From the IMG/VR virus record IMGVR_UViG_3300028627_000407, positions 1-20,842 of that record: a DNA stretch of 20,842 bases; one strand, given 5' to 3'. Shown here piece after piece: positions 1,832 through 17,916 of this stretch (the stretch's first letter is position 1; each line of letters opens with the position of its first letter). The translations under genes and the position numbers were made by a program. The notes beneath the pieces were generated by a model. It was not told the DNA's origin. It saw only the letters and a list, made by a program, of their open reading frames with translations, and ran no database searches. This DNA is from a virus.

Positions 1832-1958
1832 CTAACTAACTTGGAGAAATGGGTATAATACGATTGGCTAAGGGCATTTTTGTATTTTTTTCTGGCCTTA
1901 ATATAAGGGCCAAATATCCCAAGATAAATATTTATACCTAGATCATAAACAGCTGCTG

Positions 1959-2147
1959 ATGGATGAAGCTACAATGAGTGAACTAAGGGAGTTTTTTAGA
2001 AGTGTGCATGGAAGGACAGAAGATCCAAATAGCAAAAATCCATTAACTAAAGAAGAAATGGATAAATTAGCAAAGTTACGGATATCTGGAGTAATGGATG
2101 AATATATGGAGCAAGTAATGGAAAATGCAAAGAAATCAAAAAATTAG
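1959..2147 (+). CDS. Small hypothetical protein (62 aa), probably extended to 2224 (88 aa) by a -1 shift or an A-run indel
   Basis: TTTATA at 1931-1936 lies about 25 nt upstream. The ORF ends in A AAA AAT TAG, and the -1 frame (2144-2224) encodes a second copy of its C-terminal motif. Confidence 0.6.
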   Translation: MDEATMSELREFFRSVHGRTEDPNSKNPLTKEEMDKLAKLRISGVMDEYMEQVMENAKKSKN

Positions 2148-2326
2148 CACAATTAAGATCACCCGGGATATTAGACGAGTGGATGGAAGAGAATGCTGAA
2201 AAGGAATTTGATAGAAGGAAATAATTTACTCAAATAATTCAAAGTATAAAATCAAATTATACAAAATCCAACTTCATTTAACAAATCACTTTAAACATTT
2301 TTACCTCTTTTTATCGAGGTAGCTGT

Positions 2327-2584
2327 ATGAAATATAATTTTCCAATAAAATCCAAAGAATTTTTTAGCCGCAATATTTTAGAAGCTGATGTAGGATCTAA
2401 CTGCCCATGTGGAGGAGATGGTGGACACGGCGGAAAGACTTACCTAAAGATAACAGATGGAAGGAACACTGGATGGAATATCAAGGTAAAAGATCTTGAA
2501 GAGGGGAGTATTTTTTCATTATTCTATGGAGATACAATTAATGTAGAAAGCTATTTATATATATCTTGTTTCTTTTCATCATGA
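2327..2584 (+). CDS. Hypothetical protein with a GGDGGHGGKTY motif, possibly C-terminally truncated
   Basis: GAGGT SD at 2316-2320. NILEADVGSNCPCGGDGGHGGKTYLKITD recalls, from memory only, a small uncharacterised mobile-element family (NILEVEAGTTG..GGDSGHGGRTYFRI). The last ~13 codons are the promoter of the next gene. Confidence 0.5.
   Translation: MKYNFPIKSKEFFSRNILEADVGSNCPCGGDGGHGGKTYLKITDGRNTGWNIKVKDLEEGSIFSLFYGDTINVESYLYISCFFSS
2545..2561 (+). promoter_or_regulatory. BRE-TATA promoter of the membrane-protein gene
   Basis: AGAAAGCTA-TTTATATA, with ATG at 2581 about 20 nt downstream. Confidence 0.55.
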
Positions 2585-3444
2585 AGAAAAGCCAAGTTAC
2601 TAAATTGATAGCGTATGCATTTATCATTTTATTTGGATTCGGTGCTAGCTTATATTATAATTATGACTCACTTGTTGTATCTAAAACCGAAATTAGCGAA
2701 GATTTAGGCAATACATTGAACTTAGATATGGTAAAGGTAACAGATACGCACCGATATAACAATCCTGATAATCCATATGAGATCTACGAAAAAATACAAA
2801 ATCAAAAAGAATATATTCTGGTACCAGATTATAAAGTCAAGATTAATTTCTCAGAGCCTGCAATTGAGAATAATATAATTTTATTTAGATTTGATATAAA
2901 GGATGAAGGAATTCAAAAATTAAACGAAGAAACGTATTTCTATCGTGTATATGTAGTTCAAAAAGATGAAAATGTCGAATATGCTTTCCCCGATAATCCT
3001 TATTATAGTTATGAAAAATGGGATTATCAAGAAAAATATAGGAATAACAAAAAAATTAATACTGTAGCATATCAAAAAGAAAAGTACTTTTTTCCCAGAG
3101 AAACCTTACTTAATTTAGAGGGAGAATACTTTGATTCGACTCAAAATAAATACTTGGAAAGTAAAATCTACCTTAGTTTTGATGCTCTTGAAGCTGGAAC
3201 ATGGGATGTCTATGTATTTGTTTTTGATGAGAAGTATTATGTAAGAGGAACAGAAACTGAGTTAGACAAAAAATATAGTAATTACTGTGTCGGTTATAAT
3301 AAATTGTCCATTACTTACACTGGAATTGAGGAGCCTCCAAAAAAGACTCAAGATAAAACTCGGCCAGTTGTAGAATTTTTAGGATTATGGGCGGCTATAA
3401 GTTTCCCCTTATATGGATTTTTTAAATGGAGAAACCTACTTTAA
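2581..3444 (+). CDS. Membrane protein: N-terminal signal/TM helix, Tyr-rich extracellular beta domain, C-terminal TM anchor
   Basis: MKKSQVTKLIAYAFIILFGFGASLYY (basic then hydrophobic) and C-terminal PVVEFLGLWAAISFPLYGFFKWR. Start placed at ATG 2581 from the promoter position. Confidence 0.75.
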   Translation: MKKSQVTKLIAYAFIILFGFGASLYYNYDSLVVSKTEISEDLGNTLNLDMVKVTDTHRYNNPDNPYEIYEKIQNQKEYILVPDYKVKINFSEPAIENNIILFRFDIKDEGIQKLNEETYFYRVYVVQKDENVEYAFPDNPYYSYEKWDYQEKYRNNKKINTVAYQKEKYFFPRETLLNLEGEYFDSTQNKYLESKIYLSFDALEAGTWDVYVFVFDEKYYVRGTETELDKKYSNYCVGYNKLSITYTGIEEPPKKTQDKTRPVVEFLGLWAAISFPLYGFFKWRNLL

Positions 3445-3460
3445 TTTTATTTAAATTCTC

Positions 3461-3922
3461 TTATACTTCAAACTTCGGAAAACGTTCTAGATTCGCTCTA
3501 ATCTCTTTCAATCTTTTTAATATATCAAGCACTAATCCATTCTCAATTGAACGGGCTAGATATCCCTCGCATATCCTATCTCCCGCTAAAATAGTTTTGA
3601 ATATCACTCTGATGTCTTGGATACTAGCTTCTGACAAAGGAATCACTCTATTAATTAATCTAAATATATCGCCCCTATCTTTGGTCTTGCCATAATGGGT
3701 GGTAAAATTTTCCTTATACAAAACATATAAAAAATCGGAGACTTTTTCTGAATAGTCATAATATGGAACATGGTAAATTCCTTGTTTAATTTCTCTTGGC
3801 GGCACAAGAATATAGAAAACGTTGGCCTTATCTTCAAAGTAGGGTATAAATTCAAGCACCTTATCTATATTCTCCTTTGTTATTTGAGCGGATTCTTCTT
3901 TAGGTGGCATTGTAATCTTCAT
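3461..3922 (-). CDS. DUF6508-like protein
   Basis: EASIQDIRVIFKTILAGDRICEGYLARSIENGLVLDILKRLKEI matches my recollection of the DUF6508 C-terminal pattern (A-x-L-x-x-I/L-R...DRFCEG-x-L...E-x-G...IL-x-RL). The start could be ATG 3910. Confidence 0.6.
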   Translation of the reverse strand: MKITMPPKEESAQITKENIDKVLEFIPYFEDKANVFYILVPPREIKQGIYHVPYYDYSEKVSDFLYVLYKENFTTHYGKTKDRGDIFRLINRVIPLSEASIQDIRVIFKTILAGDRICEGYLARSIENGLVLDILKRLKEIRANLERFPKFEV

Positions 3923-3998
3923 AAGATTACTTTATTAGTTTTTAATATTATTTGGAAAAGAAATATTTTTCCCTATTTTCCCTATTTTTTTCCATATT

Positions 3999-4010
3999 CT
4001 TATATATAAG
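3999..4010. promoter_or_regulatory. Palindromic, possibly bidirectional TATA element between the DUF6508-like gene and the defence operon
   Basis: CTTATATATAAG, preceded by TTCCCTATT repeats at 3969, 3978 and (degenerate) 3990. Confidence 0.45.
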
Positions 4011-4066
4011 GGAATACCATACAGTACAATCCTTAGGTTATTATTTTACAACTAGAGCGTGAAAAG

Positions 4067-6922
4067 ATGGACCCCGTGCTTGCAGAAATAGTTGAATTGT
4101 ATCCTTCATTAAATAAAGAACAACAAAAATCCATTACTACAACAGAGGGGCCCCTATTACTTATTGCGGGCCCAGGTACTGGAAAAACTTTAGTTTTAGT
4201 TCTAAGAACACTTTACTTAATTAAAACTGGAAAAGCATTACCCTCAGAAATAGTATTGACAACATTCACTGAAAAGGCTGCCTTTGAATTAAGGGACAGA
4301 GTTAGCCAGATTTCAAGAAAACTAAAAATGAAAGAATCCCTGCATGAACTAAAGATAGGCACGATTCATAGTATATGTGAGAGATTTATTTCTAAAAACT
4401 TATTCTACACTAATTTAAAAAATAATTATATTACTCTTGATGATTTGACTCAATATTTGTTTATCTATGAGCATTTTGGAGATATAGTTGGTGGGGCCAG
4501 AAACAATCTTTATCTTGGAAAGTGGAAGACTAAATCGTCAACTATAAAGGCCATTATACCATTCATTAATAAAATAACTGAGGAGCTGATTGATCCTGAT
4601 CAATTATTAAATTCAAATGATAATTTTGTTAGGGACTTGGGCCTCGCATACAAACAATATAGAAAGCTCTTATTTGAGAATAACAGAATAGACTTTTCCC
4701 ACCTACAGACCGTTTTCTTAGATCTATTAAAAAATGAAACAGTTGGTCCAAAAATAAAGGATAAGATAAAATACATTATGGTCGATGAGTATCAGGACAC
4801 AAACTATGCGCAAGAACAGATAATATTGACATGGGGAAAACCAAATAATAATATTTGTGTCGTTGGAGATGAAGATCAATCTCTTTATAGATTTAGAGGG
4901 GCAACTATTAGGAACATAATTGAATTTCCTTCTCATTTTAAAAATTGTGAAGAGATCCCGCTTCTTACAAACTATAGGTCACATAACAAGATAATTGAAC
5001 GATACAATCGTTTTATGCAAGCCGTAGATTGGGCCGATAAGGATGGAAGATTTTATAGATTTATGGACAAAGAGGTTGTACCTCCCAAAAATACAATATT
5101 TCCAGATTACCCCGCAGTTTTTTCTATATGGGGGAGGAATGAATCTGACGAGGGCCAAAGAGTAGCAGAGATGGTAAAATATCTAAAAGATAAGAATGTT
5201 ATAACAGACTATAGAGATGTGGCACTAATATTAAAAAGTGTCCGAATTGAATCAAGTTGTCAGTACACAGATGCCTTTGATAGATTAGGGATTCCATATT
5301 TTAATCCAAGAGCCAAAGCCTATTTTGAAAATGATGAGATAAAGATGATGTTGGCATGCTTTGCTATGGTATTTGAGTTCATGGGGGAGCATTTAGAAAA
5401 TTATCCTTACCGAAATTATATTTATCAAGGATTTGAATTATTGAAGGATTACATTAAAAGCCCGTTATCTGAGTACATCCAAAGGCGAAATGACCAGATA
5501 AAATCCCTTAATGAAGGCCAAACACTTGATTTATCTATAGGTGATTATTTCTATCAGCTTCTTGCGTACAAGCCGTTTTCTAAATTTTTAAAAGAAGAAA
5601 ACAAGGCTAGAAATTTATCAATATTTTCTTCATTATTACGAAAATTCCAGCAATATTATCATTTTAATATTGTAACTTTCAAAAATAAAGAATTTATCAA
5701 GTTTTATCTATTCGGGAGTTTCTTTAGGTTCTTAATCGATGGTGGCATCGACGAATACGAGGATCCAGACAACCCTTTTCCAAAAGGCCATGTACAGGTG
5801 ATGACAATCCATCAATCAAAAGGATTAGATTTTCCTGTAATTATAGTAGGATCTTTAGCAAGAGGATTTAATACCCAAAAACAGATTGATAGAACTCTAG
5901 GTAGTTTTTATGAAAGAGGATTATTTGAACCTGAGAAGAGAATTACAGATTTTGATAGGGCAAGACATTTCTATGTAGCATTTTCAAGAGCCCAAAAATT
6001 ACTTGTCCTAACTACAACTGATACTCCCCATAGATCATTTGCTCCAATATGGGAAGGTCTTGATCAGTGGCCCCACGTTAAGAGAGAATTACTTACTGCC
6101 CAAAGATTCTCTCCTAAGGATCAATATATACCAAAAAGAACCTTTAGTCTTACTTCAGATATAAACATCTATGAAACTTGCCCTAGACAGTATCAGATGT
6201 ATAAAGAATATAAATTTGAGCCGTCTAGAGTAGGAAGTGTTCTTTTCGGTAGTCTAGTGCACCAGACGATAGAAGATATTCATAGATTTGTTTTAGAGGA
6301 TAGATTGGGCGAGATAACGCCGACTTTAATAGAAGATCTTTACAACGAGAACTACAAAGGATTAATTGCAACTGGGTTAAGACCACTTGCACAAACTCCA
6401 AAAGAAGCTGGCCTCAAACAGGTGCTAACTTACTTTAATCAAAACAAAGATCTAATGGATAGGGTTATTGAAACAGAAGTAGATGTTTCTGTTGAAAAAG
6501 ATAGATATATAATACTTGGAAAAATAGATCTTCTTTTAGGAGAAGACGATAAGGTAGAAATACTAGACTTTAAGACCCAACCAAAACCAAATCTCGATGA
6601 TCCCTTAATTGAAAGATACAAGAGGCAACTATCCTTATATGGGTATATTGTCAATCAAAGATATGGATTTCATCCTGAACGTCTATTGCTATACTGGACG
6701 AGTGAAGAGATAAGAGAAAATGCTTTGATGGAGTTTTCATACAGTAAAGATTATGTAGATGAAGTTGGAAAACACTTTGATTATATTTCAACTTGCATTA
6801 TGGAAAAAAGGTTTGACATGGCTAATCCACCCGATATTTCAAAAATATGTAAAGAGTGTGATTTTAGAACATACTGCTCTAAGGAAGGGGTAATAAATTT
6901 CAAAAGTGAGGATATTGTATGA
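4067..6922 (+). CDS. UvrD/PcrA-type SF1 helicase fused to an AddB/Cas4-like PD-(D/E)XK nuclease with a 4-Cys Fe-S signature
   Basis: Helicase motifs AGPGTGKT, MVDEYQD, VGDEDQSLYRFRGA, TNYRS, MTIHQSKGLDFP and FYVAFSRA. Nuclease motif GKIDLL...ILDFKT. One Cys (YETCPRQY) plus C-x2-C-x5-C (CKECDFRTYC). Confidence 0.93.
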   Translation: MDPVLAEIVELYPSLNKEQQKSITTTEGPLLLIAGPGTGKTLVLVLRTLYLIKTGKALPSEIVLTTFTEKAAFELRDRVSQISRKLKMKESLHELKIGTIHSICERFISKNLFYTNLKNNYITLDDLTQYLFIYEHFGDIVGGARNNLYLGKWKTKSSTIKAIIPFINKITEELIDPDQLLNSNDNFVRDLGLAYKQYRKLLFENNRIDFSHLQTVFLDLLKNETVGPKIKDKIKYIMVDEYQDTNYAQEQIILTWGKPNNNICVVGDEDQSLYRFRGATIRNIIEFPSHFKNCEEIPLLTNYRSHNKIIERYNRFMQAVDWADKDGRFYRFMDKEVVPPKNTIFPDYPAVFSIWGRNESDEGQRVAEMVKYLKDKNVITDYRDVALILKSVRIESSCQYTDAFDRLGIPYFNPRAKAYFENDEIKMMLACFAMVFEFMGEHLENYPYRNYIYQGFELLKDYIKSPLSEYIQRRNDQIKSLNEGQTLDLSIGDYFYQLLAYKPFSKFLKEENKARNLSIFSSLLRKFQQYYHFNIVTFKNKEFIKFYLFGSFFRFLIDGGIDEYEDPDNPFPKGHVQVMTIHQSKGLDFPVIIVGSLARGFNTQKQIDRTLGSFYERGLFEPEKRITDFDRARHFYVAFSRAQKLLVLTTTDTPHRSFAPIWEGLDQWPHVKRELLTAQRFSPKDQYIPKRTFSLTSDINIYETCPRQYQMYKEYKFEPSRVGSVLFGSLVHQTIEDIHRFVLEDRLGEITPTLIEDLYNENYKGLIATGLRPLAQTPKEAGLKQVLTYFNQNKDLMDRVIETEVDVSVEKDRYIILGKIDLLLGEDDKVEILDFKTQPKPNLDDPLIERYKRQLSLYGYIVNQRYGFHPERLLLYWTSEEIRENALMEFSYSKDYVDEVGKHFDYISTCIMEKRFDMANPPDISKICKECDFRTYCSKEGVINFKSEDIV

Positions 6923-8790
6923 GTAAGATAGATATTAAAAAACCAGAGCTAGTTTGGAAAGGTAAATACGATGATGAAGGTAATTTAAAACCAATTGATA
7001 GACCTGGCCCTTATCCTTTCCAAGTTGTAGAAACTATTAATAGTCCTAGAAAAGGAAAAAAATCAGGAGATAACCTTACCTTGTATGATTTCTACGATGT
7101 TGATGAAGGTGATAGCTTTGAAACTGGTTGGAATAACAAGCTGATCTGGGGAGACAACAAACTAGTGATGTCCTCCCTTCTTGAGAAGTTTGCAGGAAAA
7201 ATAGATTTAATCTATATTGACCCCCCGTTTGCTACAGGTGCTGATTTTAGATTGAAAGTACAGATAGGTGAAGAAGGAGAAGAGGTTGAAAAGGAGCATT
7301 CTATTTTGGAAGAAAAGGCTTATCGAGATACGTGGGGGGAAGGTCTTGAATCTTATCTTAATATGATGTATGAAAGATTATATCTAATCAAAGAGTTATT
7401 ATCTGAAAAAGGTTCAATTTATGTTCATTGTGATTGGCATGTGGGACATTATCTTAAATTAATATTAGACGAAATATTTGGAAAAGATAATTTTAAAAAT
7501 CAAATAATTTGGAGATATGGAAAAATGGCTTCAGCCAAAAATAAATTCTTATCCAATCATGATATAATATTTTTATATTCAAATAATAAAGATTCGGTTT
7601 TTAATTCTCAGTTTATAAAACTAGATACACCTATAAAAAGATTAGGCAGAACAGTTAGAGATGGAAAATTAGTAAATTTAAAAGACAATGAGGGAAATTT
7701 AGTATACATAGAAAAAAATGAAAAAATAATCGATGATGTATGGGGAGATATACCAACAGTAATGTATGCTAATCCTGAATATGCAGGATTTTCTACCCAG
7801 AAACCAGAAGGATTATTGAAAAGAATAATACTAACTTCATCAAATGAAGGGGATTTAGTTGCAGATTTTTTTGTTGGCTCTGGTACAACTTTGATTGTTG
7901 CAGAAAAATTGAGGAGAAGATGGATTGGAACAGATCTATCTAGATATGCAGTTCATACTACTCGAAAGAGAATATTAGAAATTCAAAATTCTAAAGATTT
8001 AACAAATGAACAAAAACTATATGATAAGAAAGCTAATCCGTTTGAAATTCTAAATCTAGGTAAATATGAAAGACAATACTGGAAGAGTACTACCTTCAAT
8101 CCAAAAGATTCAATCCAAGCTTATTATGAATACATTTCATTTATTTTAAAATTATACGGTGCAGAGCCTCTAAGTGGATCACAATTTATTCATGGTAAAA
8201 AATCTAACGCCTTAGTTTATGTTGGGTCTATAGATACTCCTGTCACTATAAATGAAATAGCCAACGCAATCTCTGAGACAAAAAAAATGAGGCAAAAAGA
8301 GCTTCACGTTTTAGGTTGGGAATGGGAAATGGGGCTAAACGATGCGATAGACCAAATAGCAAAAAGAGAAAACATTAGTCTAAAACTTTGGATTATACCT
8401 AACGAGGTTTTGGAAAAACAGGCTATTGATAGGGGAGACATAAGATTCTTTGAATTAGCCTATTTCAAACCTGAAATTATTACTTCTGGAAAAGAGGTCA
8501 TAATCGAACTAAAGGATTTTGTTATTCCTCATACTGACTTAATATCTAAAGAAGTAAGAGAAAAAATCAAAAAATGGACTGATTGGATCGATTACTGGGC
8601 AATTGATTTTAATTTTCAAAATGATACTTTTGTTAATAGTTGGGCATCGTATAGAACCAAAAAAGATAGAACTCTGTCCCTTAAGGCCACCTACAAATAT
8701 AAAGAACCTGGGAAATACAAAGTTTTTATTAAAGTAATTGATATCTTTGGAATAGATACCTCTCAAATATATGAGGTGACAATAAAATGA
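6919..8790 (+). CDS. mod: Type III-like R-M methyltransferase (Mod), beta-class amino-MTase with C-terminal extension
   Basis: Catalytic DPPF precedes the SAM motif DFFVGSGTT (beta order); TQKPEGLL motif. ATGA overlaps with the helicase stop and the res start. Confidence 0.9.
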   Translation: MSKIDIKKPELVWKGKYDDEGNLKPIDRPGPYPFQVVETINSPRKGKKSGDNLTLYDFYDVDEGDSFETGWNNKLIWGDNKLVMSSLLEKFAGKIDLIYIDPPFATGADFRLKVQIGEEGEEVEKEHSILEEKAYRDTWGEGLESYLNMMYERLYLIKELLSEKGSIYVHCDWHVGHYLKLILDEIFGKDNFKNQIIWRYGKMASAKNKFLSNHDIIFLYSNNKDSVFNSQFIKLDTPIKRLGRTVRDGKLVNLKDNEGNLVYIEKNEKIIDDVWGDIPTVMYANPEYAGFSTQKPEGLLKRIILTSSNEGDLVADFFVGSGTTLIVAEKLRRRWIGTDLSRYAVHTTRKRILEIQNSKDLTNEQKLYDKKANPFEILNLGKYERQYWKSTTFNPKDSIQAYYEYISFILKLYGAEPLSGSQFIHGKKSNALVYVGSIDTPVTINEIANAISETKKMRQKELHVLGWEWEMGLNDAIDQIAKRENISLKLWIIPNEVLEKQAIDRGDIRFFELAYFKPEIITSGKEVIIELKDFVIPHTDLISKEVREKIKKWTDWIDYWAIDFNFQNDTFVNSWASYRTKKDRTLSLKATYKYKEPGKYKVFIKVIDIFGIDTSQIYEVTIK

Positions 8791-11516
8791 GCGAAGTACC
8801 TCAAAGCATAGTTCATTATGATAATAATATTCCGCTCATTGAGGGGCGAGACCCTACTAAACCGCCTGATTGCCATATTGTAAAGGATTTACCGGGCCAT
8901 TACAAGATAGTAAAGGGTAGACGTAAAAGTTCTACTTTCCTCACAAATAGTATAAGAAAACAGGTAAGCAAGTGGGTAAATGATGGATACCCGGGAGTAA
9001 CAGAGACTACCAAAGAATTATTAACCTTCTGGTTTGAAAGCGACCACATAATCAAAGGTAGACAGTTTAATTTTTGGTTCTGCCAAAGAGAAGCGATTGA
9101 AACATTAATATATTTATTTGAGGTAAAAAAATTCAATGATTTTGAACAAGTTATACATGAATTTGCTCAAAAAGAGATAACTGGAATCCTGGGAAGTTCT
9201 GTAGAAGTTATAAAAAAAATAGGTGGGAGTAGAGACGTCATCCGGTACTTTCCAGAATTAAAACAAATGGGAAATCAAGAAATTCCAGAAGAAGGATTGC
9301 TAAAATATGCATTTAAGATGGCTACAGGCTCGGGTAAAACAATAGTTATGGCCTTAATCATTGTTTGGTCATATTTTAATAATATTAAGGAAAAGGATAC
9401 ACGCTACAGCAACAATTTCTTAATAGTTCCCCCAAACGTAATAGTTTATGAAAGGTTAGCAAGGGATTTTAGAGATAATAAACTCTTTTATGATTTTCCA
9501 TTTATTCCCTCCCCTTGGAAATCATTATGGAATTTAAAGGTTACATTAAGAGACGACGATTCTCCTTTGGCGCCCTCCAGTAATATAATATTGGCAAATA
9601 TCCAGCAGTTATACGAATCAAGAGTTGATGGATGGACTCCAGCGAACATTGCAGAAGCTATATTAGGAAGATCTCCACAAAAGAATTTAACAAAATCTCC
9701 TGTTATGCTCTTAGACAGAATAAAGGATCTCACAAATATCTTAGTTATTAATGATGAAGCGCATCATGTTCATGACACAGAATTAAAGTGGCACGAAACT
9801 CTTATTTCCATCCATAGATCCTTACCAAAGGGAATTACTCTCTGGCTTGATTTTTCTGCTACACCTAAGACCCAAACTGGTGTTTATTACGCTTGGACAA
9901 TAGTTGATTATCCATTGGCCCAAGCTGTAGAGGATAGAATAGTAAAAGCCCCAATAATTGTTCACCGTGTCAATAAAAAAGATCCTATTGAAGTGAGTCA
10001 AGACAATGTCATTGAAAAATATGGAGAATGGTTACTATCATCTATTCACAGATGGAAAGTGCACTATGATTCTTATTTAGGCATGAAAAAAAAGCCGATT
10101 CTATTTATAATGTCTGAAAAATCTGTGTATGCGGATAAGATTGCAGAGTTTATTCAAAATGATAAATCAATATATGATTTCTCAAAGGATGAAATATTAG
10201 TTATTCATACAGATACATCGGGAGATATTAAAAAATCAGATTTAGAACAATTACGACGAGTTGCAAGAGATGTCGATAATCCTACAAGTAAAATAAAAGT
10301 TATTTCGAGTGTTTTAATGCTAAGAGAAGGTTGGGATGTTCAAAACGTTACTGTATGTCTTGGATTACGACCCTATACAGCGCAGGCAAAAATTCTTCCA
10401 GAGCAAACTATTGGAAGGGGCCTTAGAATAATGGGTGGAATAACGCCAGACTATATACAAACACTTGAAGTAATGGGAACAAACGAATTTGAAAGTTTTG
10501 TCAGGAATGAGTTAGAGCAAGAGGGCGTAAACATAGAAACAGTCCATACCCCACCACCTCAGGGTGTAACAATATCTGTAGAGTTATCACGCCTTAAGTA
10601 TGATGTAGAAATTCCACAAATAGGCCTAAGATACAAAAGAAATTATAAGAAATTGTCTGAGATTAATATTAACTCAATTCCAAACATATTCACTTCTGAT
10701 ATTCTAAAAGAGGAGTGGAAATCGACATTAAGAATGGAATTTGCTACAACGGGCACCGATATCCATAAAGAAGACATTGAACACACGGCAGGTTATGAAA
10801 TTAGAGAAAAAATATCCTACATTGTGAACAACGTTATGAAAAAAGCCGGCCTCACTTGCCAGTTTTATGAAATATGTCCTATTGTAGAGGAGTATATCTT
10901 AATTAAATGCTTTGATACAAAGATTGATAGTATTGATTCAATTTGTATTAAAAAGTCGCTAAGTAGGATAGATGTATTAGAAGGAATCATCTCTGTTCTT
11001 GCCCAACATATTGGTGAATTAACCGCAGAAAAGACAGATGTACTTATTTTGCAAAAACCAATTAAACTCTCTGAAACAGAAGTTAGCCCGTGGAATAGAA
11101 AACATGTAAGACTTGATAAAACTATTTTCAATTATGTAGCTGTTTATAATAACTTTGAGGAAGAGTTTGCAACATTCCTTGATAGAAGATTTCTGGACAT
11201 AGAGAGATTTGCTTCACTGGCAACCACAATTTTTAAAATTGATTATCTTAGTTCAAAAGGCGCCACTAGATTTTATCACCCGGACTTCGTTGCCGTGCAA
11301 AATATTGGTGATAAAAAGAAATATTGGATCATAGAAACTAAGGGAAGAGAGTATGAGGATGTCGATAGAAAAGACGAGGCCATAATAAGATGGTGTCAAG
11401 AAGTATCAGAACAAATGGGGCAGTCTTGGAATTACTTAAAAGTTCCACAAGTTAAGTTTGATTACATTAAGGATAGAATTACTAGTTTTGAAAATTTAGT
11501 TAGAAGATTAAGTTGA
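8787..11516 (+). CDS. res: Type III-like restriction subunit (Res): SF2 helicase/ATPase plus C-terminal PD-(D/E)XK endonuclease
   Basis: MATGSGKT, NDEAHH, FSATP, MLREGWDV and EQTIGRGLR; C-terminal YHPDF...IIETKG. Confidence 0.9.
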   Translation: MSEVPQSIVHYDNNIPLIEGRDPTKPPDCHIVKDLPGHYKIVKGRRKSSTFLTNSIRKQVSKWVNDGYPGVTETTKELLTFWFESDHIIKGRQFNFWFCQREAIETLIYLFEVKKFNDFEQVIHEFAQKEITGILGSSVEVIKKIGGSRDVIRYFPELKQMGNQEIPEEGLLKYAFKMATGSGKTIVMALIIVWSYFNNIKEKDTRYSNNFLIVPPNVIVYERLARDFRDNKLFYDFPFIPSPWKSLWNLKVTLRDDDSPLAPSSNIILANIQQLYESRVDGWTPANIAEAILGRSPQKNLTKSPVMLLDRIKDLTNILVINDEAHHVHDTELKWHETLISIHRSLPKGITLWLDFSATPKTQTGVYYAWTIVDYPLAQAVEDRIVKAPIIVHRVNKKDPIEVSQDNVIEKYGEWLLSSIHRWKVHYDSYLGMKKKPILFIMSEKSVYADKIAEFIQNDKSIYDFSKDEILVIHTDTSGDIKKSDLEQLRRVARDVDNPTSKIKVISSVLMLREGWDVQNVTVCLGLRPYTAQAKILPEQTIGRGLRIMGGITPDYIQTLEVMGTNEFESFVRNELEQEGVNIETVHTPPPQGVTISVELSRLKYDVEIPQIGLRYKRNYKKLSEININSIPNIFTSDILKEEWKSTLRMEFATTGTDIHKEDIEHTAGYEIREKISYIVNNVMKKAGLTCQFYEICPIVEEYILIKCFDTKIDSIDSICIKKSLSRIDVLEGIISVLAQHIGELTAEKTDVLILQKPIKLSETEVSPWNRKHVRLDKTIFNYVAVYNNFEEEFATFLDRRFLDIERFASLATTIFKIDYLSSKGATRFYHPDFVAVQNIGDKKKYWIIETKGREYEDVDRKDEAIIRWCQEVSEQMGQSWNYLKVPQVKFDYIKDRITSFENLVRRLS

Positions 11517-11628
11517 TTTATATATCCCAATAATTTTCATTTTATTAATAAAACTTTTAAGATACTCCATTTAATTATTATATTCGCAATAGAGTTATAA
11601 AAATATATAAAAAGTTAGGTATGGTAAA

Positions 11629-12063
11629 TTGACAAATTATTGGCTTATGATTACGGACCAAGAAAATTGGCTGGTTATAAAAGAGCATGAAATATATGCT
11701 ACTAATACTAAAAAAATATTTGAAAATCTTAAAATATATGATAAAATAGTAATGTATTTAATTCCTAAACAAATTTGTGGCATATTTGTAATATCAGATT
11801 TATATCCAAAAAAGATTACTACTTTCTCCAATAAAGAGTATAAGTATTATTTCAATATATCCCCTGAAATTATAATAGAACCCCCGATGAAGATACGTAA
11901 AAGGGAGAAATCAGAGTTAATTGATAAAATATCTATTTTTAAAAATGCTTTACATTGGGGAGGAGTAATAATGGGTAAGTCAATCTTAACTATCTCAAAA
12001 GAAGATTATTTATTGATTGAGTCAAAATTATTAAAATTAAAAAATCTTAAACTTAAAAAATAA
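11629..12063 (+). CDS. Stand-alone EVE-domain (PUA-like) protein
   Basis: NYWLMIT..ENW....E..IYA...KK.F..LK..DKIVMYL....ICGIF.I is the EVE pattern. TTG start; an out-of-frame ATG at 11621 makes the true start uncertain. Confidence 0.8.
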   Translation: MTNYWLMITDQENWLVIKEHEIYATNTKKIFENLKIYDKIVMYLIPKQICGIFVISDLYPKKITTFSNKEYKYYFNISPEIIIEPPMKIRKREKSELIDKISIFKNALHWGGVIMGKSILTISKEDYLLIESKLLKLKNLKLKK

Positions 12064-12082
12064 TCTAATATATTAAATTTAA

Positions 12083-12229
12083 TTACCAAATAACCCTATC
12101 TCTCTTTCTTTTGCACTTCTTACAAACTAAAAACGTCTTCTCTGTCTTTGGATCAAAACAATAGCGGGCATACATCTCAATCGGCCTTGCCATGACTACC
12201 CCGCACCTAGCACAGTGATATTCCCTCAT
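12083..12229 (-). CDS. 48-aa zinc-finger protein, last gene of the tail operon
   Basis: MREYHCARCGVV...LVCKKCKRKR has two CxxC pairs. ATG 12229 overlaps the upstream TGA as ATGA, so the longer 12322 start is unlikely. Confidence 0.7.
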   Translation of the reverse strand: MREYHCARCGVVMARPIEMYARYCFDPKTEKTFLVCKKCKRKRDRVIW

Positions 12230-12894
12230 GCTTTCATGATCCACGCAACTTCGTAGTACTTTGGCCTTATATCTATCGTAAATCCTGCCACCCTTGTAGT
12301 TGTATCCCCTGCAAAAGTCCAAGATCCAGCTACAGTCTTTGTGTGGCTACCTCCAGTTGCACCAGGATTTGTTGAAGATGTTGTGATCCCCTGCAAGAAT
12401 CGGTCAATAAGATTAGGCGTCCCGTTGTTTCCATCACAAAGAAGCCATCCTGAGGGGATGCTTGTCAAAACTCCACTCCACGCAACAATAACTCCAGGTG
12501 GCACAAATGAGGGTAATCCTGAAATAACATTAGTTATTGAAGAGATTGAACTTGCCCCTGCGACAACCGTTGCAATCAGCATCGCATCGTCTGGCAAAGT
12601 TGCGGAAGTTGAGATTGTGAGCCAGTTGGCCCCGTTGTCAGAATGCAGATAAACATAGTTTGTGCTATTTGCAGTTGCTGTCAAAGATTCGGAGGCATCT
12701 GAAACAACTTGGAACATGCCTCCGGCCGCATCTTTTACATATGCAGCCCCAGCCGCAACGCTAATAGTAAGGCCACTGGCAACTGAAACTGTAAAGCCTG
12801 TCTTTTTACCTTCAGGAAAAAAATCCCCGAAGTATTGCCTGAAATCAGCTGAGGTGATCTTGGTCCCAGCTGATACTTTTTTTGTAAATGTCAT
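12226..12894 (-). CDS. Tail fibre protein with a phage tail-collar domain
   Basis: VPPGVIVAWSG...IPSGWLLCDGNNGTPNLIDRF...GATGG...RPKYYEVAWIMK is the tail-collar signature. GAGGT SD upstream. Confidence 0.88.
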   Translation of the reverse strand: MTFTKKVSAGTKITSADFRQYFGDFFPEGKKTGFTVSVASGLTISVAAGAAYVKDAAGGMFQVVSDASESLTATANSTNYVYLHSDNGANWLTISTSATLPDDAMLIATVVAGASSISSITNVISGLPSFVPPGVIVAWSGVLTSIPSGWLLCDGNNGTPNLIDRFLQGITTSSTNPGATGGSHTKTVAGSWTFAGDTTTRVAGFTIDIRPKYYEVAWIMKA

Positions 12895-12904
12895 GATTAT
12901 ACCT

Positions 12905-13393
12905 CTAAAATTCTATCACATAATAAATAGTCATTGTTTTTGTGTTGCTGAAAGTTTTAGTTGGAGAGATAAGCGAATGGGTGAGAAGATCTGTTTGATT
13001 GGCAGCATAAAGCCCAAGCTCCGCCCACGTACCATAATAATCAGCTTCCGTGTAATCAAAATAATACGTTGCCTCGGATTTGTTTGAATATGTGTTGTTA
13101 TGCAAGCTCCCTGGAACATAAGATTTTAATGATCCTAATTGTGTAGTTAGGGCCAAATCAGTTCCTGCTGGTGTAGTGCTGCCAGTGCCTATCGCCAGCT
13201 TGCCAATCACATGTTTGTTAGCGTCATAGTCTCCAGTTAGCACATCTGCAAGTGCAGCTTTTAGTTTGTTTGTGATCAGATTCTTTTGCCATGAACCCCT
13301 TATGATCTTGTCTCTTTCAAAATCGTATTCTTCGATCTTGAATTTTCCCAGGTACGGATTTTTATCACCCCTCACCAGTTCTATTATGTCCAT
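12905..13393 (-). CDS. Tail-fibre-base/baseplate-associated protein (DUF3751-like), paralogue of 17981-18361
   Basis: NLITN...LAIGTGST.P..TD.AL...AELGLY...K motif set. Start moved to ATG 13393 (GGATGTGA SD-like), overlapping the end of the hub gene. Confidence 0.65.
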   Translation of the reverse strand: MDIIELVRGDKNPYLGKFKIEEYDFERDKIIRGSWQKNLITNKLKAALADVLTGDYDANKHVIGKLAIGTGSTTPAGTDLALTTQLGSLKSYVPGSLHNNTYSNKSEATYYFDYTEADYYGTWAELGLYAANQTDLLTHSLISPTKTFSNTKTMTIYYVIEF

Positions 13394-16300
13394 TTGCTCA
13401 CATCCCATCTCGCTTCGTTGTCATCATATTCGGCCTCATAATCTGCTGCCGCCTCATAAATATTTTCTGATAATGCGATCGTAGGTGTTTCAGTTGCCTC
13501 TTTATAATCTGTTGTCTGCTCCTGTGATTCTAAGATGTTTTTCACTTTCAGCCGTCTAAGCTCGGAAAACAAGTTAGCAAATGCAGAGTAAAAGTCGTCT
13601 GCAGCGGTGCATGTCAAGGTGACTGTTGAAATTTCCCTTTCTCTTATCTCGTAAGTCACTGATAGTATTGTTTGGTCTTCAAGTGACGGCATTTCAGGAA
13701 GGGTTGTAAACTCGATTACTTGCCCGGCCTTCAATCTTTTTCCCGGCGGATTTATCACAATTCTTGATGCATTTTTCAAGGCGTATTCAATTGCCTTTTG
13801 CTGCGCTAAAGTCATTGCAGTGTCTGCCTCCTGGATAGTCAGATCTATAATCGGTATATCGGTGTGGTACTCAAACATCATTGTTTCTGTCGTGGCGCTT
13901 TTTACTATCTGCACCCCATAATAAGTCTTGAAAGCCAGCTTTCCAGTTGCTGCAGTCCAAGATCCAGCAAGAGTTTTGTATTTATGTCCGCTTGCCGTTG
14001 TGTTATTATGCACAACTTTGTAAGTGTCTGTTGCCGTGCCCATTATATTGAAAACGATCCAGTTTGTTTTTGATATGTCAAGCTGAGAATCGATTAATGT
14101 TGTTTTCACCCATCCACCTTCAGTTGAGATATCTTCCTGAGGGATTGATCCAAAGCCAACAATGCTCCCTGTTGGGTTTCCACCATTATCTTCAATTATT
14201 GTGAAGATCAGATCATCAAGGGGATTGCCCACTTTTTTGACATAAACGTCCAGGAACAGAATATTTGATTTTGATGGCGTAAACGTTGAAGCATATGATT
14301 TGTCGTGCAGAGACACTTCAATCGTTGTTGTGGTCTGGCTGAAGTCCAGAAAACCTTGTTTGCCGCCAACAACATAGATCCTGTCAAAGTATTTCATTGC
14401 ATCCCGTTTAATCTTTGCACTTAGTATTTCAGTGCTAGATATTGAGTGATCTGCGGATAGATCTGCAGCATCATAAAAGTGAAGGTCGTCGTTTTCATCA
14501 ATGTAAAAATCAGCGCCCACAAGACTAGAAACTTTATCAATCGCCTGGCCAACATATTCCCATGCAAATGTCATTGAGGGTATTGCTTCAGCAAAAGTTT
14601 CAAGATTAGTTGTTGTTATCTCAGGGCAGTATCTAGCCAAAATATCTGAAACAATTTCATCGGCAGTTTTGTTGTTGTATGTTTCTGCCCCAGATATAGT
14701 CGTTTGCCCAGTCCTGATTGAGCCATAATCTTCCCCTGAAAGTAGAATCTTATTGCTCCTGTATTGATCCAGTTCAAACTCAACTGAAGTGATAAGGCCG
14801 TGGAAGATCTTTGTAGAGGGAGGATCATTCTCATCAACATAGAAGAATACTTCATTTCCTACTTCAAATGTTTCTGATAGGGACCCATCATCATTGTATA
14901 AGCTTATTTCAAAATAATCCGATCTTTTTCCTTTCTCATCTGTGAATCTTGCATACTCAATTTTATCCAAGGCGGTAAGATCTATCTCAATATCGCCAGG
15001 TTGCTCTACAATTATGGTCCAAAATAGAGGAGTTGCTCCAGTGGTTTCACTGTTTATTGATAAGGCCCCATAAGAATTATAATCGATCTGCTCAACATCG
15101 ATAAACTGAAATGCCCCAGAAGATCCAAATGGGATTATCTCAATATCGGTGTCAAAGTCCTGGATAATTATGGAGCTAGAAGAATCTATCTCTATTAGTG
15201 CATGATAAGTAGTTGCAACAGCAATCTCCATTGTGCCAGCACCTGTGGCTTCATTTTTCCCAACAAATGAAGCACTCAATTGGATATCTACTTCTGCGTT
15301 AGAGGCTATTGATTCGCTTAGGATGTATGCGGTGATACTGTTAAAAGTAAGATCCCCTAATCCAATGATGTTCAAGGTATTCTTGAAGTCTGTTATTATT
15401 TCAGCAGTGATCGATCCTGCTCCGGTAAGCTCTACCAAATCGGTGTCAGAATCAATGTCCTGGAGCAGAAGGGATCCATTTGCAGTGTATGAGGTGCCAA
15501 CAATATAATTTGTGTTAGCTACTAACTCTAGAACGCCAGCCCCGAGGATTATAATGTCAAGAGGTGCCCAAAAAGAGTAAACGTTTGTCGAAGCTTTTGA
15601 AATATACTCTATTGACTCCATGTCCTGTATCTGGATTGATCCTACCCCAGTGAAAAGGATCAATTCAATATCATAATCAATATCCTGTATTGTAACTGAA
15701 GAAGCTGCTGTCAAAACGGAGCTGTAAGTATACTCTGCAGTTGTGCTTATCTCTATTGAAGCAAAGGAAGTTATTTCAAGAAGATCATACTTATTCATGT
15801 GTTTTATGAGGTTGACAAAAGACAGCCCAGTTGTTGTTATATTTGAAACATAATTCCCTGTTGCAGATATTGTTACCTTTGCATTGCTTTGATATTCTAT
15901 TAAAGTTGTGGACCCAGAATATTCTTGTAGCTCAAATGATCCAGCGCCCCCAAATGAGACATCAACTACTTTTCCTATTATTGCATCTATCTCAAAAGTC
16001 GATGCACCGATGATGTTTGAAATACTGGCAAGTTGCCTATACCCTAGAGCTTCTGTTGTGCCGGCCCCATCAAAAGACACAGATATGGCCATGCTTGAAA
16101 TCCCAGAGACTACAAATGATCCATAACCTGAAAAGGTTATAATTTCAATGTCAGAGTCGATATCCTGGGAAATGACTGCACCCAGGCTAATGTAATTTAT
16201 GTTGCAAACATAATCTATAACTGTAGCAACTTCAATTGCCGCATAGCTCAGATAAGTGATAGTCTGCTTATATGAAAATGCCGCTGAAGCTGTTATGGCC

Positions 16301-17916
16301 CCTGCTCCAGTGAGTTCAACTAAAGAGGAATATCCTCTGTGATCTTCATAAGAAAAGCTGCCTTTGCCAGCGATAATTATTGTTTCAATATCGGCGTCAA
16401 CATCCTGGATGACGATTGATCCAAATCCTGTGAACGTCACAGTTTCAGAATATAATGAGCCGTAAGAGCAGGAAACTGCTCCGTTTGAGGTATAAGTTAT
16501 CGTTGCTGCACGTGTTATCCCAGCTGCAGTTACAGAGACTGCACTATTTGCAGAGTAAGTCACAGTTTCTTGATATTCCTCGCCACTTGGCTCGGTGTAG
16601 TCAATCACGAGCTTTGGAGTGTTAGTGGAATTCTCGGATGCATAATAGTATCCAGTGTATGCATAGGTCCCAGAAGGTGCGCTATTTGAATAGTCATAGG
16701 TGTATTCCATTATGCAATATTTAGTTGTGCCAGCACAGACAATATCTGATTTTCCTGTTGCATCAAGATTGATTGTTTGGTAACCATTAGATGTTGTGCC
16801 TATAGTCCCATATGAGCTCCCGCTATATGCTGCAAAATCGCTTGTTGCAAGTGTGCTTCCCTGTGTGCCTTTCAATGCGCAAAGCGTTGGACCGTAGCTG
16901 TGTGAATAGATGTAAACTGAAAGAGCCGCTGAATTAATCGTTGAGCCGCTTGGGATGCCTGAAGTATCAAAGTACAGAAATCCCCTCTGGATTGAGTATA
17001 AGTAACCTAGTATCTTATCGAAGGATTTGCTTGTTCTAACGGCCGTAGTTGTGATTGCGTTGTAAACTGTTTCACCAGTTGCCCGTGCCGTACTCCAAGT
17101 TCCGCTGGTCACACCTTTTATGTATCCATCGGCTGAAGTTGCGTAATAAGTTGTAGAATCTATGTATACTGTTTTTTTGCCTTTCAGTTTTTCGTTGCCG
17201 GGCCCAAGAAGGCCGTAGTTTTGGACCATCCATGCCCAATTTTTGGCCTTATCATCGAAATACTTGACATAGAAAATTCTGCCGTCTTTTTTTACTATTC
17301 TGTGCTTCAAAGGCTCGGAAAAATAATCGTGGCCCTCTACCCACATCCTGGGCGTGGGTATCCAGATTTTTTCCTTTGTATCAAGCTCAAAAGTAAATAC
17401 GTCAGCTTTTTTCCCCTTTGGATGGAATCCTTTCAGATGGAGTTCATACCAGACCTCAACATCTTGAAGGGGGATCTTTCCCGTGTCCACCACAAGCGAT
17501 TCCTGGACATATCTTTCGTGAATCCTGTTGTGTATCCAAAGGCCGTCTGAGATGACGTGCTTCAGTTCATGATTATTGATCTGCTCAATTATGGCAAATC
17601 TATCAAAAGAAACTTCTTTCCCGTTTAGTATGATCTTGCTTATTGTTGCTTCGTACTGCAGATCATACCCTTTCCTGAAGCCAAAATATTTTTCCTTCTT
17701 TCTGTCTTTTCTAAAGCCGACAGAAAACTTGTGCCTATCCATTATGAATTTGTCTTTTTCTTCCCGGATCGTTATATCGATTGTTCGGAGATTGTGATTG
17801 TCGTCTTCATAATGGACAGGCTTTTCTTCACAGATTGCCCTGAATCTTCCTGGTGCAATTTGGAATGTTTTTGAAGCAAGGGTCCTTTTTTCAACTACCT
17901 CTTGCTCTCTATTCAC
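13384..17916 (-). CDS. 1510-aa tail hub/adhesin chimera: WapA/RHS-N-like region, DNRLRE-like domain, 20-aa repeat shaft, gpD/Tal-like hub with an inserted beta domain
   Basis: KRTLASKTF...PVHYEDD...IDITI (WapA-N-like). RGFLYFDTSGIPSGSTINSAALSVY...PKLVIDY (DNRLRE-like). SDYFEISLYN..G...F.VG.EV...IF.G.I..V...EIVSDIL...DFYIDENDDLHF (late-control-D/hub-like). Located two short genes after the tape measure gene; GTG start. Confidence 0.75.
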   Translation of the reverse strand: MNREQEVVEKRTLASKTFQIAPGRFRAICEEKPVHYEDDNHNLRTIDITIREEKDKFIMDRHKFSVGFRKDRKKEKYFGFRKGYDLQYEATISKIILNGKEVSFDRFAIIEQINNHELKHVISDGLWIHNRIHERYVQESLVVDTGKIPLQDVEVWYELHLKGFHPKGKKADVFTFELDTKEKIWIPTPRMWVEGHDYFSEPLKHRIVKKDGRIFYVKYFDDKAKNWAWMVQNYGLLGPGNEKLKGKKTVYIDSTTYYATSADGYIKGVTSGTWSTARATGETVYNAITTTAVRTSKSFDKILGYLYSIQRGFLYFDTSGIPSGSTINSAALSVYIYSHSYGPTLCALKGTQGSTLATSDFAAYSGSSYGTIGTTSNGYQTINLDATGKSDIVCAGTTKYCIMEYTYDYSNSAPSGTYAYTGYYYASENSTNTPKLVIDYTEPSGEEYQETVTYSANSAVSVTAAGITRAATITYTSNGAVSCSYGSLYSETVTFTGFGSIVIQDVDADIETIIIAGKGSFSYEDHRGYSSLVELTGAGAITASAAFSYKQTITYLSYAAIEVATVIDYVCNINYISLGAVISQDIDSDIEIITFSGYGSFVVSGISSMAISVSFDGAGTTEALGYRQLASISNIIGASTFEIDAIIGKVVDVSFGGAGSFELQEYSGSTTLIEYQSNAKVTISATGNYVSNITTTGLSFVNLIKHMNKYDLLEITSFASIEISTTAEYTYSSVLTAASSVTIQDIDYDIELILFTGVGSIQIQDMESIEYISKASTNVYSFWAPLDIIILGAGVLELVANTNYIVGTSYTANGSLLLQDIDSDTDLVELTGAGSITAEIITDFKNTLNIIGLGDLTFNSITAYILSESIASNAEVDIQLSASFVGKNEATGAGTMEIAVATTYHALIEIDSSSSIIIQDFDTDIEIIPFGSSGAFQFIDVEQIDYNSYGALSINSETTGATPLFWTIIVEQPGDIEIDLTALDKIEYARFTDEKGKRSDYFEISLYNDDGSLSETFEVGNEVFFYVDENDPPSTKIFHGLITSVEFELDQYRSNKILLSGEDYGSIRTGQTTISGAETYNNKTADEIVSDILARYCPEITTTNLETFAEAIPSMTFAWEYVGQAIDKVSSLVGADFYIDENDDLHFYDAADLSADHSISSTEILSAKIKRDAMKYFDRIYVVGGKQGFLDFSQTTTTIEVSLHDKSYASTFTPSKSNILFLDVYVKKVGNPLDDLIFTIIEDNGGNPTGSIVGFGSIPQEDISTEGGWVKTTLIDSQLDISKTNWIVFNIMGTATDTYKVVHNNTTASGHKYKTLAGSWTAATGKLAFKTYYGVQIVKSATTETMMFEYHTDIPIIDLTIQEADTAMTLAQQKAIEYALKNASRIVINPPGKRLKAGQVIEFTTLPEMPSLEDQTILSVTYEIREREISTVTLTCTAADDFYSAFANLFSELRRLKVKNILESQEQTTDYKEATETPTIALSENIYEAAADYEAEYDDNEARWDVSKWT
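15040..16575 (-). repeat. About 26 tandem degenerate 20-aa repeats within the large tail protein
   Basis: Units such as YSETVTFTGFGSIVIQDVDA / DIETIIIAGKGSFSYEDHRG / YSSLVELTGAGAITASAAFS. The QD-x-D-x-D motif recurs at 16402, 16162, 15682, 15457 and 15157 (spacings 240, 480, 225 and 300 nt). Confidence 0.85.

Follow-up and report, generated by a model that had tools for sequence, protein, structure and literature searches.

A virus-borne three-gene Type III-like restriction-modification cassette with a UvrD-Cas4-like helicase-nuclease and an optional EVE neighbour

What does a helicase fused to a nuclease contribute to a restriction-modification (R-M) system that in its classical Type III form has two genes, and why is the whole set carried by a virus? 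These questions are raised by the linear IMG/VR virus record IMGVR_UViG_3300028627_000407, analysed here over 20,842 bp (hereafter the window; 63% complete according to CheckV). It encodes, in order, a UvrD-type helicase fused to a Cas4/AddB-type nuclease (gene 1), a Type III methyltransferase (Mod, gene 2) and a Type III-like restriction enzyme (Res, gene 3), after which lies a stand-alone EVE gene (Table 1). A preliminary description of this DNA had treated all four as one defence module. We find that the window holds an intact, virus-borne and RadC-less copy of a published, uncharacterised three-gene cassette, with EVE as an optional neighbour. As to function, we consider it probable that this 7.5-kb Type III-like cassette is swappable cargo of a tailed virus, in which Mod-Res would cut unmarked DNA and the helicase-nuclease would degrade it from the ends, thereby excluding competitors.

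The limits of the cassette were apparent from nucleotide homology to its relatives. A cellular contig (L002) whose cassette is 80-88% identical to that of the window matches exactly positions 3976-11510, and homology to two sister viruses begins at 3953 (L115) and 3987 (L120), which together define a sharply bounded, mobile unit of approximately 7.5 kb. The three genes are joined by ATGA overlaps, read at 6919-6922 and 8787-8790 as in the preliminary description, with a GAGG-type ribosome-binding site 6-10 nucleotides upstream at both junctions, and the relatives show similarly tight gene spacing. The catalytic motifs that the same description had judged to be intact were all present in helicase, nuclease, Mod and Res. 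Chance would fall far short of explaining open reading frames (ORFs) of 900+ codons at 33% GC that each match a family strongly. No gene for a specificity (S) subunit was found within 1890-12079, and scans of the window for promoters and terminators remained at the level of shuffled sequence.

The product of gene 1 matched UvrD-helicase (PF00580, E 8e-66), UvrD_C, PDDEXK_1 (PF12705, E 5e-19) and Cas_Cas4 (PF01930, E 6e-7). In an alignment of 24 sequences (the window and 23 homologues) the helicase motifs (Walker A, G35-T41; DEYQD, 240-244), the nuclease residues (D821/D834/K836 and Q854/Y858) and four cysteines (the distal C705 and the C-terminal C928, C931 and C937) are all kept. AddB, Cas4 and Dna2 bind a 4Fe-4S cluster through such a four-cysteine pattern, and gene 1 shares with them the layout of one distal cysteine and a C-x2-C-x5-C group. 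Gene 1 also resembles AddAB and RecBCD in joining a superfamily 1A (SF1A) motor to a downstream RecB-family nuclease. However, it is a single chain of 951 amino acids without a partner subunit, it scores far under the cut-offs of the AddA and RecB models, and no Chi-recognition elements are known for it. In total 6,423 homologues were scored, those with 53-65% identity coming from WOR-3, TA06, Caldithrix, Ignavibacteria, Bacteroidales, Desulfurella and others.

Mod matched N6_N4_Mtase (E 4e-46) and, over its full length, the PADLOC model MTase_III (E 2e-149), as well as the Mod proteins of EcoP15I (4zcf_A, E 7e-19) and H. pylori (E 5e-20). Its DPPF motif (101-104) precedes FVGSG (318-322), so that motif IV stands before motif I. 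Alone within the cassette, the centre of mod (7487-7835) could not be aligned at the nucleotide level with L002, L115 and L120. This is the usual signature of exchange of the target-recognition domain in Type III mod genes, and the segment is presumed to be that domain.

Res matched Pfam ResIII (E 1e-15) and, partially, the PADLOC model REase_III (E 1e-18), whilst its nearest NCBIfam family, BPTD_3080, scored well below the cut-off. Among 28 homologues, ResIII was recognised in 28/28 and RE_endonuc in 23/28, and the residues of the ATPase (Walker A 177-185 with K184; DEAH 323-326; motif VI 540-547 with R544/R547) and of the C-terminal nuclease motif (P832-D833...E850-x-K852) are invariant or nearly so. 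The AlphaFold model of Res is middling (predicted local distance difference test, pLDDT, 71.5), its ATPase core aligning to Snf2/ISWI, RadD and UvsW (Z ~14). Fold comparison with Foldseek and VIA-align returned generic superfamily 2 (SF2) ATPases only, and EcoP15I Res was not among the matches listed.

The pair resembles classical Type III systems (EcoP15I, EcoP1I) in its beta-class Mod matching EcoP15I Mod, in a Res built of an SF2 DEAH ATPase and a C-terminal PD-ExK nuclease, and in having no specificity subunit. It differs from them in three respects. Classical systems consist of two genes whereas the cassette has three; the Mod of the window does not have the TypeIII_RM_meth N-terminal domain present in the classical Mods of a related virus (L111); and Res, whether searched as a single sequence or as a profile, matched no solved chain in the PDB.

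To what extent do these three genes belong together? Approximately 22 independent loci centred on the helicase were examined, spanning 35-90% identity to the helicase of the window, and every readable one had the order helicase-Mod-Res (a methyltransferase and a Res-sized gene downstream). The order is the same where an 89% helicase relative adjoins methionyl-tRNA synthetase on a cellular contig (L002-L004), where a 65% relative adjoins a primase-MCM gene, in Caldithrix, TA06 and WOR-3, and in fifteen IMG/VR contigs and two metagenome-assembled genomes (MAGs) with 35-39% helicase identity. Among deposited complete phage genomes, one, that of Acutalibacteraceae phage NatCom_11578, also carries the trio, annotated only as helicase, methyltransferase and hypothetical. 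When the search was begun from Res, the trio operon was found in 3/3 look-ups (Caldimicrobium, Thermodesulfovibrio, Chitinophagales), and at least 21 contigs are common to the top-120 match lists of helicase and Res. A further scan of genome contigs with the full-length helicase alignment caught generic UvrD motifs and returned mostly UvrD/PcrA loci, only two (L005 and L006) being relevant. In no examined locus did a close helicase homologue stand without adjacent mod and res, and this constant neighbourhood bears out the earlier proposal that the helicase-nuclease is a dedicated partner of Mod/Res.

Moreover, the pairwise identities of helicase and Res co-vary, with a Mantel r of 0.97 over 22 loci and of 0.99 and 0.95 within two clades; 0/2000 permutations reached any of these values. 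Mod correlates less tightly because its middle is exchanged. Taken together, these comparisons show the trio to be a conserved cassette, inherited as one piece across bacteria and viruses.

One part of this family has a further gene. In 6/6 bacterial loci of a clade with 55% identity a RadC (JAB-like) gene overlaps the start of the helicase-nuclease, and the helicase, Mod and Res of these six operons are 55-67% identical to those of the window. RadC is absent from the clade of the window and from a clade with 37% identity, and neither Pfam nor tblastn searches with three RadC queries revealed one in the window. The clade of the window thus differs from the RadC-bearing operons in having neither RadC nor PIN, and in that its downstream slot holds EVE.

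Several individual copies show insertions or damage. In a Pyrinomonadaceae MAG (L006:12887-15556) the mod after the helicase-nuclease is split into three short ORFs and is probably a decayed copy. At L086:13706-13972 a small GIY-YIG ORF separates Mod from Res. Schlafen/AlbA-type or DUF4062-HATPase_c_4-Fic-like_C proteins stand between helicase and Mod in L086 (10814-11502) and L119 (5478-6995), and the Caldithrix cassette (L085) contains an inserted Dcm/HATPase/HhH-GPD block. Members of the 37% clade (L090, L091, L096 at 13194-17441, L097 and L101) have a fourth gene after Res, encoding 1415-1457 amino acids with an Upf1-like SF1 helicase core (AAA_11/AAA_12) at the C-terminal end.

The preliminary description had not recognised the combination as a named system. 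However, the pairing of helicase with Mod/Res is already in print, so that the locus matches in part a system described before. Hudaiberdiev et al. (2017, BMC Evol Biol 17:232, PMC5704561) reported, on computational grounds only and giving no name, a monophyletic branch of UvrD-Cas4-like fusions whose commonest neighbourhood is Type III Mod/Res, and predicted these fusions to be ancillary in defence and partly redundant with RecB. Like gene 1, the published fusions join an SF1 UvrD helicase to a pfam12705 Cas4-like nuclease and neighbour Mod/Res, in bacteria and mesophilic archaea; their optional Schlafen/AlbA-HTH inserts also occur in L086 and L119. From its architecture, its context and its 53-58% identity to proteins of named bacteria, e.g. 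Caldithrix abyssi, we infer that the protein of the window falls in this clade. The 2017 description mentions neither virus-borne copies, RadC nor an EVE neighbour (PMC5704561). PADLOC 2.0 had no specific model for the helicase-nuclease, for which the best matches were generic UvrD models (GajB and DRT helicase), and called the Mod/Res pair ordinary Type III R-M. The discovery is incremental because the association of helicase-nuclease and Mod/Res had been published; the pairing itself is widespread, with thousands of homologues in many phyla.

How is the cassette placed in this virus? GC content is 0.32 within ~1890-12079, as against 0.44 and 0.43 on either side. The left flank up to ~1889 and the right flank from ~12080, in the tail-fibre gene, are both matched by a related viral contig of 30 kb (L123), which has between them 7.5 kb of different cargo of 30% GC (L123:877-8385). 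Encoded in this cargo are a Type III Mod, matching EcoP15I Mod with E 3e-33, and a Res-like ATPase, and the helicase-nuclease is absent from it. In eight other relatives the synteny of the tail genes stops at 12059-12086. One of the slots (L111:1250-10050) contains Mrr and a classical Type III system followed by a DUF6508 gene resembling that of the window, and another (L106:11350-18281) contains Type II BsaWI-like and MvaI/BcnI-like endonucleases together with a methyltransferase. The tail fibre/collar gene adjoins the cargo in L104-L111, L115, L120 and L123. These data show that different low-GC R-M systems replace one another among relatives in the slot bounded by the early-region flank and the tail-fibre gene, and so document a virus slot exchanging whole R-M systems. 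That both flanks are kept in a related viral contig supports the view that the module is virus-borne.

The virus lineage has HK97-type capsid, portal and tail-tube genes, and IMG/VR assigns one related record to the proviruses. A megablast search of the phage collection with the entire window gave no match, proteins of the left flank had almost no phage matches, and no tRNA genes were found in the window.

Is EVE then part of the cassette? Its ORF lies past a 112-bp AT-rich gap after Res. The product fell under the threshold of Pfam EVE (PF01878, E 0.022), a model passed by 5/11 of its close homologues. It matched the solved UPF0310 proteins 2p5d (E 4e-12; profile 3.5e-17) and 1wmm, as well as NCBIfam PRK00809 (E 2e-13). 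The AlphaFold model (pLDDT 88.5) aligned to 2p5d and PH1033 with template modelling (TM) scores of 0.77 and 0.74 respectively, the next-best fold matches being YTH domains, THYN1 (with 5-methylcytosine DNA) and the EVE domain of VcaM4I. Sequence matches to UPF0310 structures and the predicted fold, a PUA-like beta-barrel as in EVE and YTH readers, therefore agree with the earlier call of an EVE gene after the trio. Its inclusion in the module did not stand, as the sister virus L115, the cellular contig L002 and all distant loci lack the gene. EVE is present in a near-identical virus (L114) and in the diverged L120, in which the cassette has 85% nucleotide identity and EVE 75% amino-acid identity to the window, and its homologues total 12 among 5.8 billion proteins. 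EVE is a facultative add-on, limited to one small virus clade (two virus lineages). The kinship of its predicted fold to YTH domains that bind N6-methyladenine (m6A), beside an adenine-type methyltransferase, is suggestive.

Archaea offer published examples of stand-alone EVE genes that neighbour R-M systems (Bell, Wolf and Koonin 2020, PMC7641849). The likeness lies in a small stand-alone EVE gene placed right after a restriction operon. However, the archaeal cases concern Type I and SWI2/SNF2-nuclease/COG1743/DUF499 systems (PMC7641849), whereas that of the window is Type III and the partnership is facultative. The accessory slot directly behind Res varies in content, being occupied by EVE in the window and by other genes elsewhere: a 75-amino-acid ORF (L115:7691-7918), a 274-amino-acid protein without known family (L002:17556-18380), a pEK499_p136-family protein (L118:11748-12191) and an ORF overlapping the Res stop (L119:11727-12019).

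How might such a cassette serve a virus? In the reading that we favour, Mod would mark the resident genomes, both virus and host, at a short asymmetric site, and incoming unmarked DNA would be cut by Mod-Res complexes. The helicase-nuclease, with its one-chain RecB/AddA layout, would load on the cut ends, unwinding and degrading the DNA. Restriction would thereby become irreversible and independent of host RecBCD/AddAB, which many phages inhibit. The pay-off for the virus would be the exclusion of competing phages and plasmids in lysogeny or long infection, for which EcoP1I, a phage-borne Type III system on phage P1, offers a textbook precedent. EVE would be a separate and optional reader of modified bases that may tune or extend the system without being needed by it. 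Degradation after cleavage is plausible, the end-processing architecture, the fixed first place in the operon and the co-divergence with Res all pointing in this direction.

A number of observations weigh against this reading. Co-divergence reflects a shared cassette history and does not itself show a joint reaction. The same helicase subfamily is also found beside Dcm/Vsr and stand-alone, and most of its carriers also have RecB (PMC5704561); L002 likewise has an AddAB-like pair close to its cassette. A simple replacement of RecBCD is therefore not a required role. Res keeps its own intact nuclease motif, and a second nuclease is unneeded for cutting as such, so that the contribution of the helicase-nuclease has to go further than cutting, with irreversibility, independence from phage-inhibited host enzymes or a different step altogether as candidates. 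With regard to a lysogenic lifestyle, no integrase was seen in the 22.7 kb of available sequence. Lastly, in the literature searched the term 'UvrD-Cas4' occurred in only one paper and no experiment on any member was found, which makes any tractable copy useful. That of the window is compact (three genes, no RadC, a 7.5-kb mobile unit), and its natural variants, which differ in the presence of EVE and in the Mod specificity segment, form a comparison set for the roles of the third enzyme and of the reader.

A stronger form of the argument, which we regard as doubtful, would make the helicase-nuclease an indispensable effector. In this clade the cassette would then represent a restriction class of three components, with Mod-Res as the finder of unmarked DNA and the Fe-S helicase-nuclease as the part that kills; in its virus-borne version the YTH-like EVE would read adenine methylation, the system thereby also sensing or sparing methylated DNA.

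It also seems rather unlikely that the helicase-nuclease, whilst coupled to Mod/Res, acts at or before cleavage, either as the main effector of a Mod-Res sensor or as a motor that opens DNA or clears proteins for Res. Such a role would fit the distribution of identity between the two deep clades (37% for the helicase, 30% for Mod and 19% for Res), the helicase being the best conserved gene of the cassette. It would also fit the constant position of the helicase-nuclease as first gene of the operon, and its partnership with methyltransferases that have no Res, as in the Dcm/Vsr context (PMC5704561). However, the ATPase and PD-ExK motifs of Res are invariant in all 28 aligned homologues, and because these are retained Res is not a mere sensor.

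We consider unlikely a general role of the helicase-nuclease, as an ancillary or repair enzyme or as a defence gene in its own right, in which it would mend self-inflicted breaks or act alone and simply be co-inherited with the R-M genes. The ancillary role, RecB redundancy and stand-alone copies put forward by the 2017 authors (PMC5704561) speak for it, as does the restriction of PADLOC matches to generic UvrD models. Set against these is the position of the gene directly upstream with overlapping codons, along with its co-divergence with Res over the whole range, which would be unusual for the shuffling neighbours of a defence island.

A use of the cassette mainly for the element itself, be it post-segregational addiction that stabilises a prophage or protection of virion DNA by Mod in hosts with the same system, is quite improbable. 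The 80-88% identical cellular cassette indicates that hosts with a matching system probably exist, and the Mod specificity segments are swapped between copies. Nonetheless, both Res and the helicase-nuclease are fully intact, which goes beyond the needs of self-protection; moreover, such a use is compatible with the exclusion of competitors rather than opposed to it.

Finally, it is very improbable that the low-GC stretch is host chromosome beside an integrated prophage end, since, although the window is an incomplete linear fragment, no integrase or attachment repeats were found (direct and inverted repeats around cassette and slot being AT-rich noise only) and several distant cassette copies lie at the edges of IMG/VR provirus calls, both slot flanks recur around different cargo in L123, small orphan genes of the sort usual in phage early regions make up the left flank, and the cassette stands beside the tail-fibre gene in three diverged relatives.

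Table 1. Positions of the cassette, its genes and neighbouring features. Coordinates refer to the window unless preceded by a locus name.
Feature	Position	Strand	Remarks
Three-gene cassette (promoter region, helicase-nuclease, Mod, Res)	3976..11516	+	Mobile; nucleotide homology to L002, L115, L120
UvrD-type SF1A helicase fused to Cas4/AddB-type PD-(D/E)XK nuclease (gene 1)	4067..6922	+	951 amino acids; four conserved cysteines
Type III Mod, beta-class N6-adenine-type methyltransferase (gene 2)	6919..8790	+	623 amino acids
Central variable segment of mod, presumed target-recognition domain	7487..7835	+	~residues 190-306; unaligned
Type III-like Res, SF2 DEAH ATPase then C-terminal PD...ExK endonuclease (gene 3)	8787..11516	+	909 amino acids
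Stand-alone EVE/UPF0310 protein (PUA-like, YTH-like)	11629..12063	+	Facultative add-on
Variable low-GC cargo slot of the virus genome	1890..12079	.	GC dip; flanks matched by L123; synteny ends
Tail fibre/collar gene	12226..12894	-	Right-hand slot anchor, outside module; PHROG tail matches
DUF6508 gene	3461..3922	-	Inside slot, left of cassette; Pfam E 4e-22
292-amino-acid ORF	2566..3444		Inside low-GC slot; no match in Pfam, PADLOC, PHROGs, NCBIfam
RadC genes	L085:7314-7997; L086:7309-8004; L087:7291-8004; L117:3607-4311; L118:3607-4302; L119:1958-2653

Two further genes lie in the slot to the left of the cassette. Beyond the unrelated R-M cargo of L111 lies a 55%-identical copy of the DUF6508 gene, hence DUF6508 may belong to the slot border. 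The gene overlaps two spurious + strand ORFs, and DUF6508 was mentioned by no paper in the literature searched. The Atlas model of the 292-amino-acid ORF is poor (pLDDT 0.46), and its sole lead is an archaeal cluster with a sub-threshold score. In a related virus (L122), which IMG/VR lists as a 'provirus', only capsid, portal and tail genes were seen. One of its genes (L122:15409-18189) encodes a protein of 926 amino acids in which a phage portal domain is combined with a C-terminal ADP-ribosyltransferase exoenzyme-like domain (E 1e-11).

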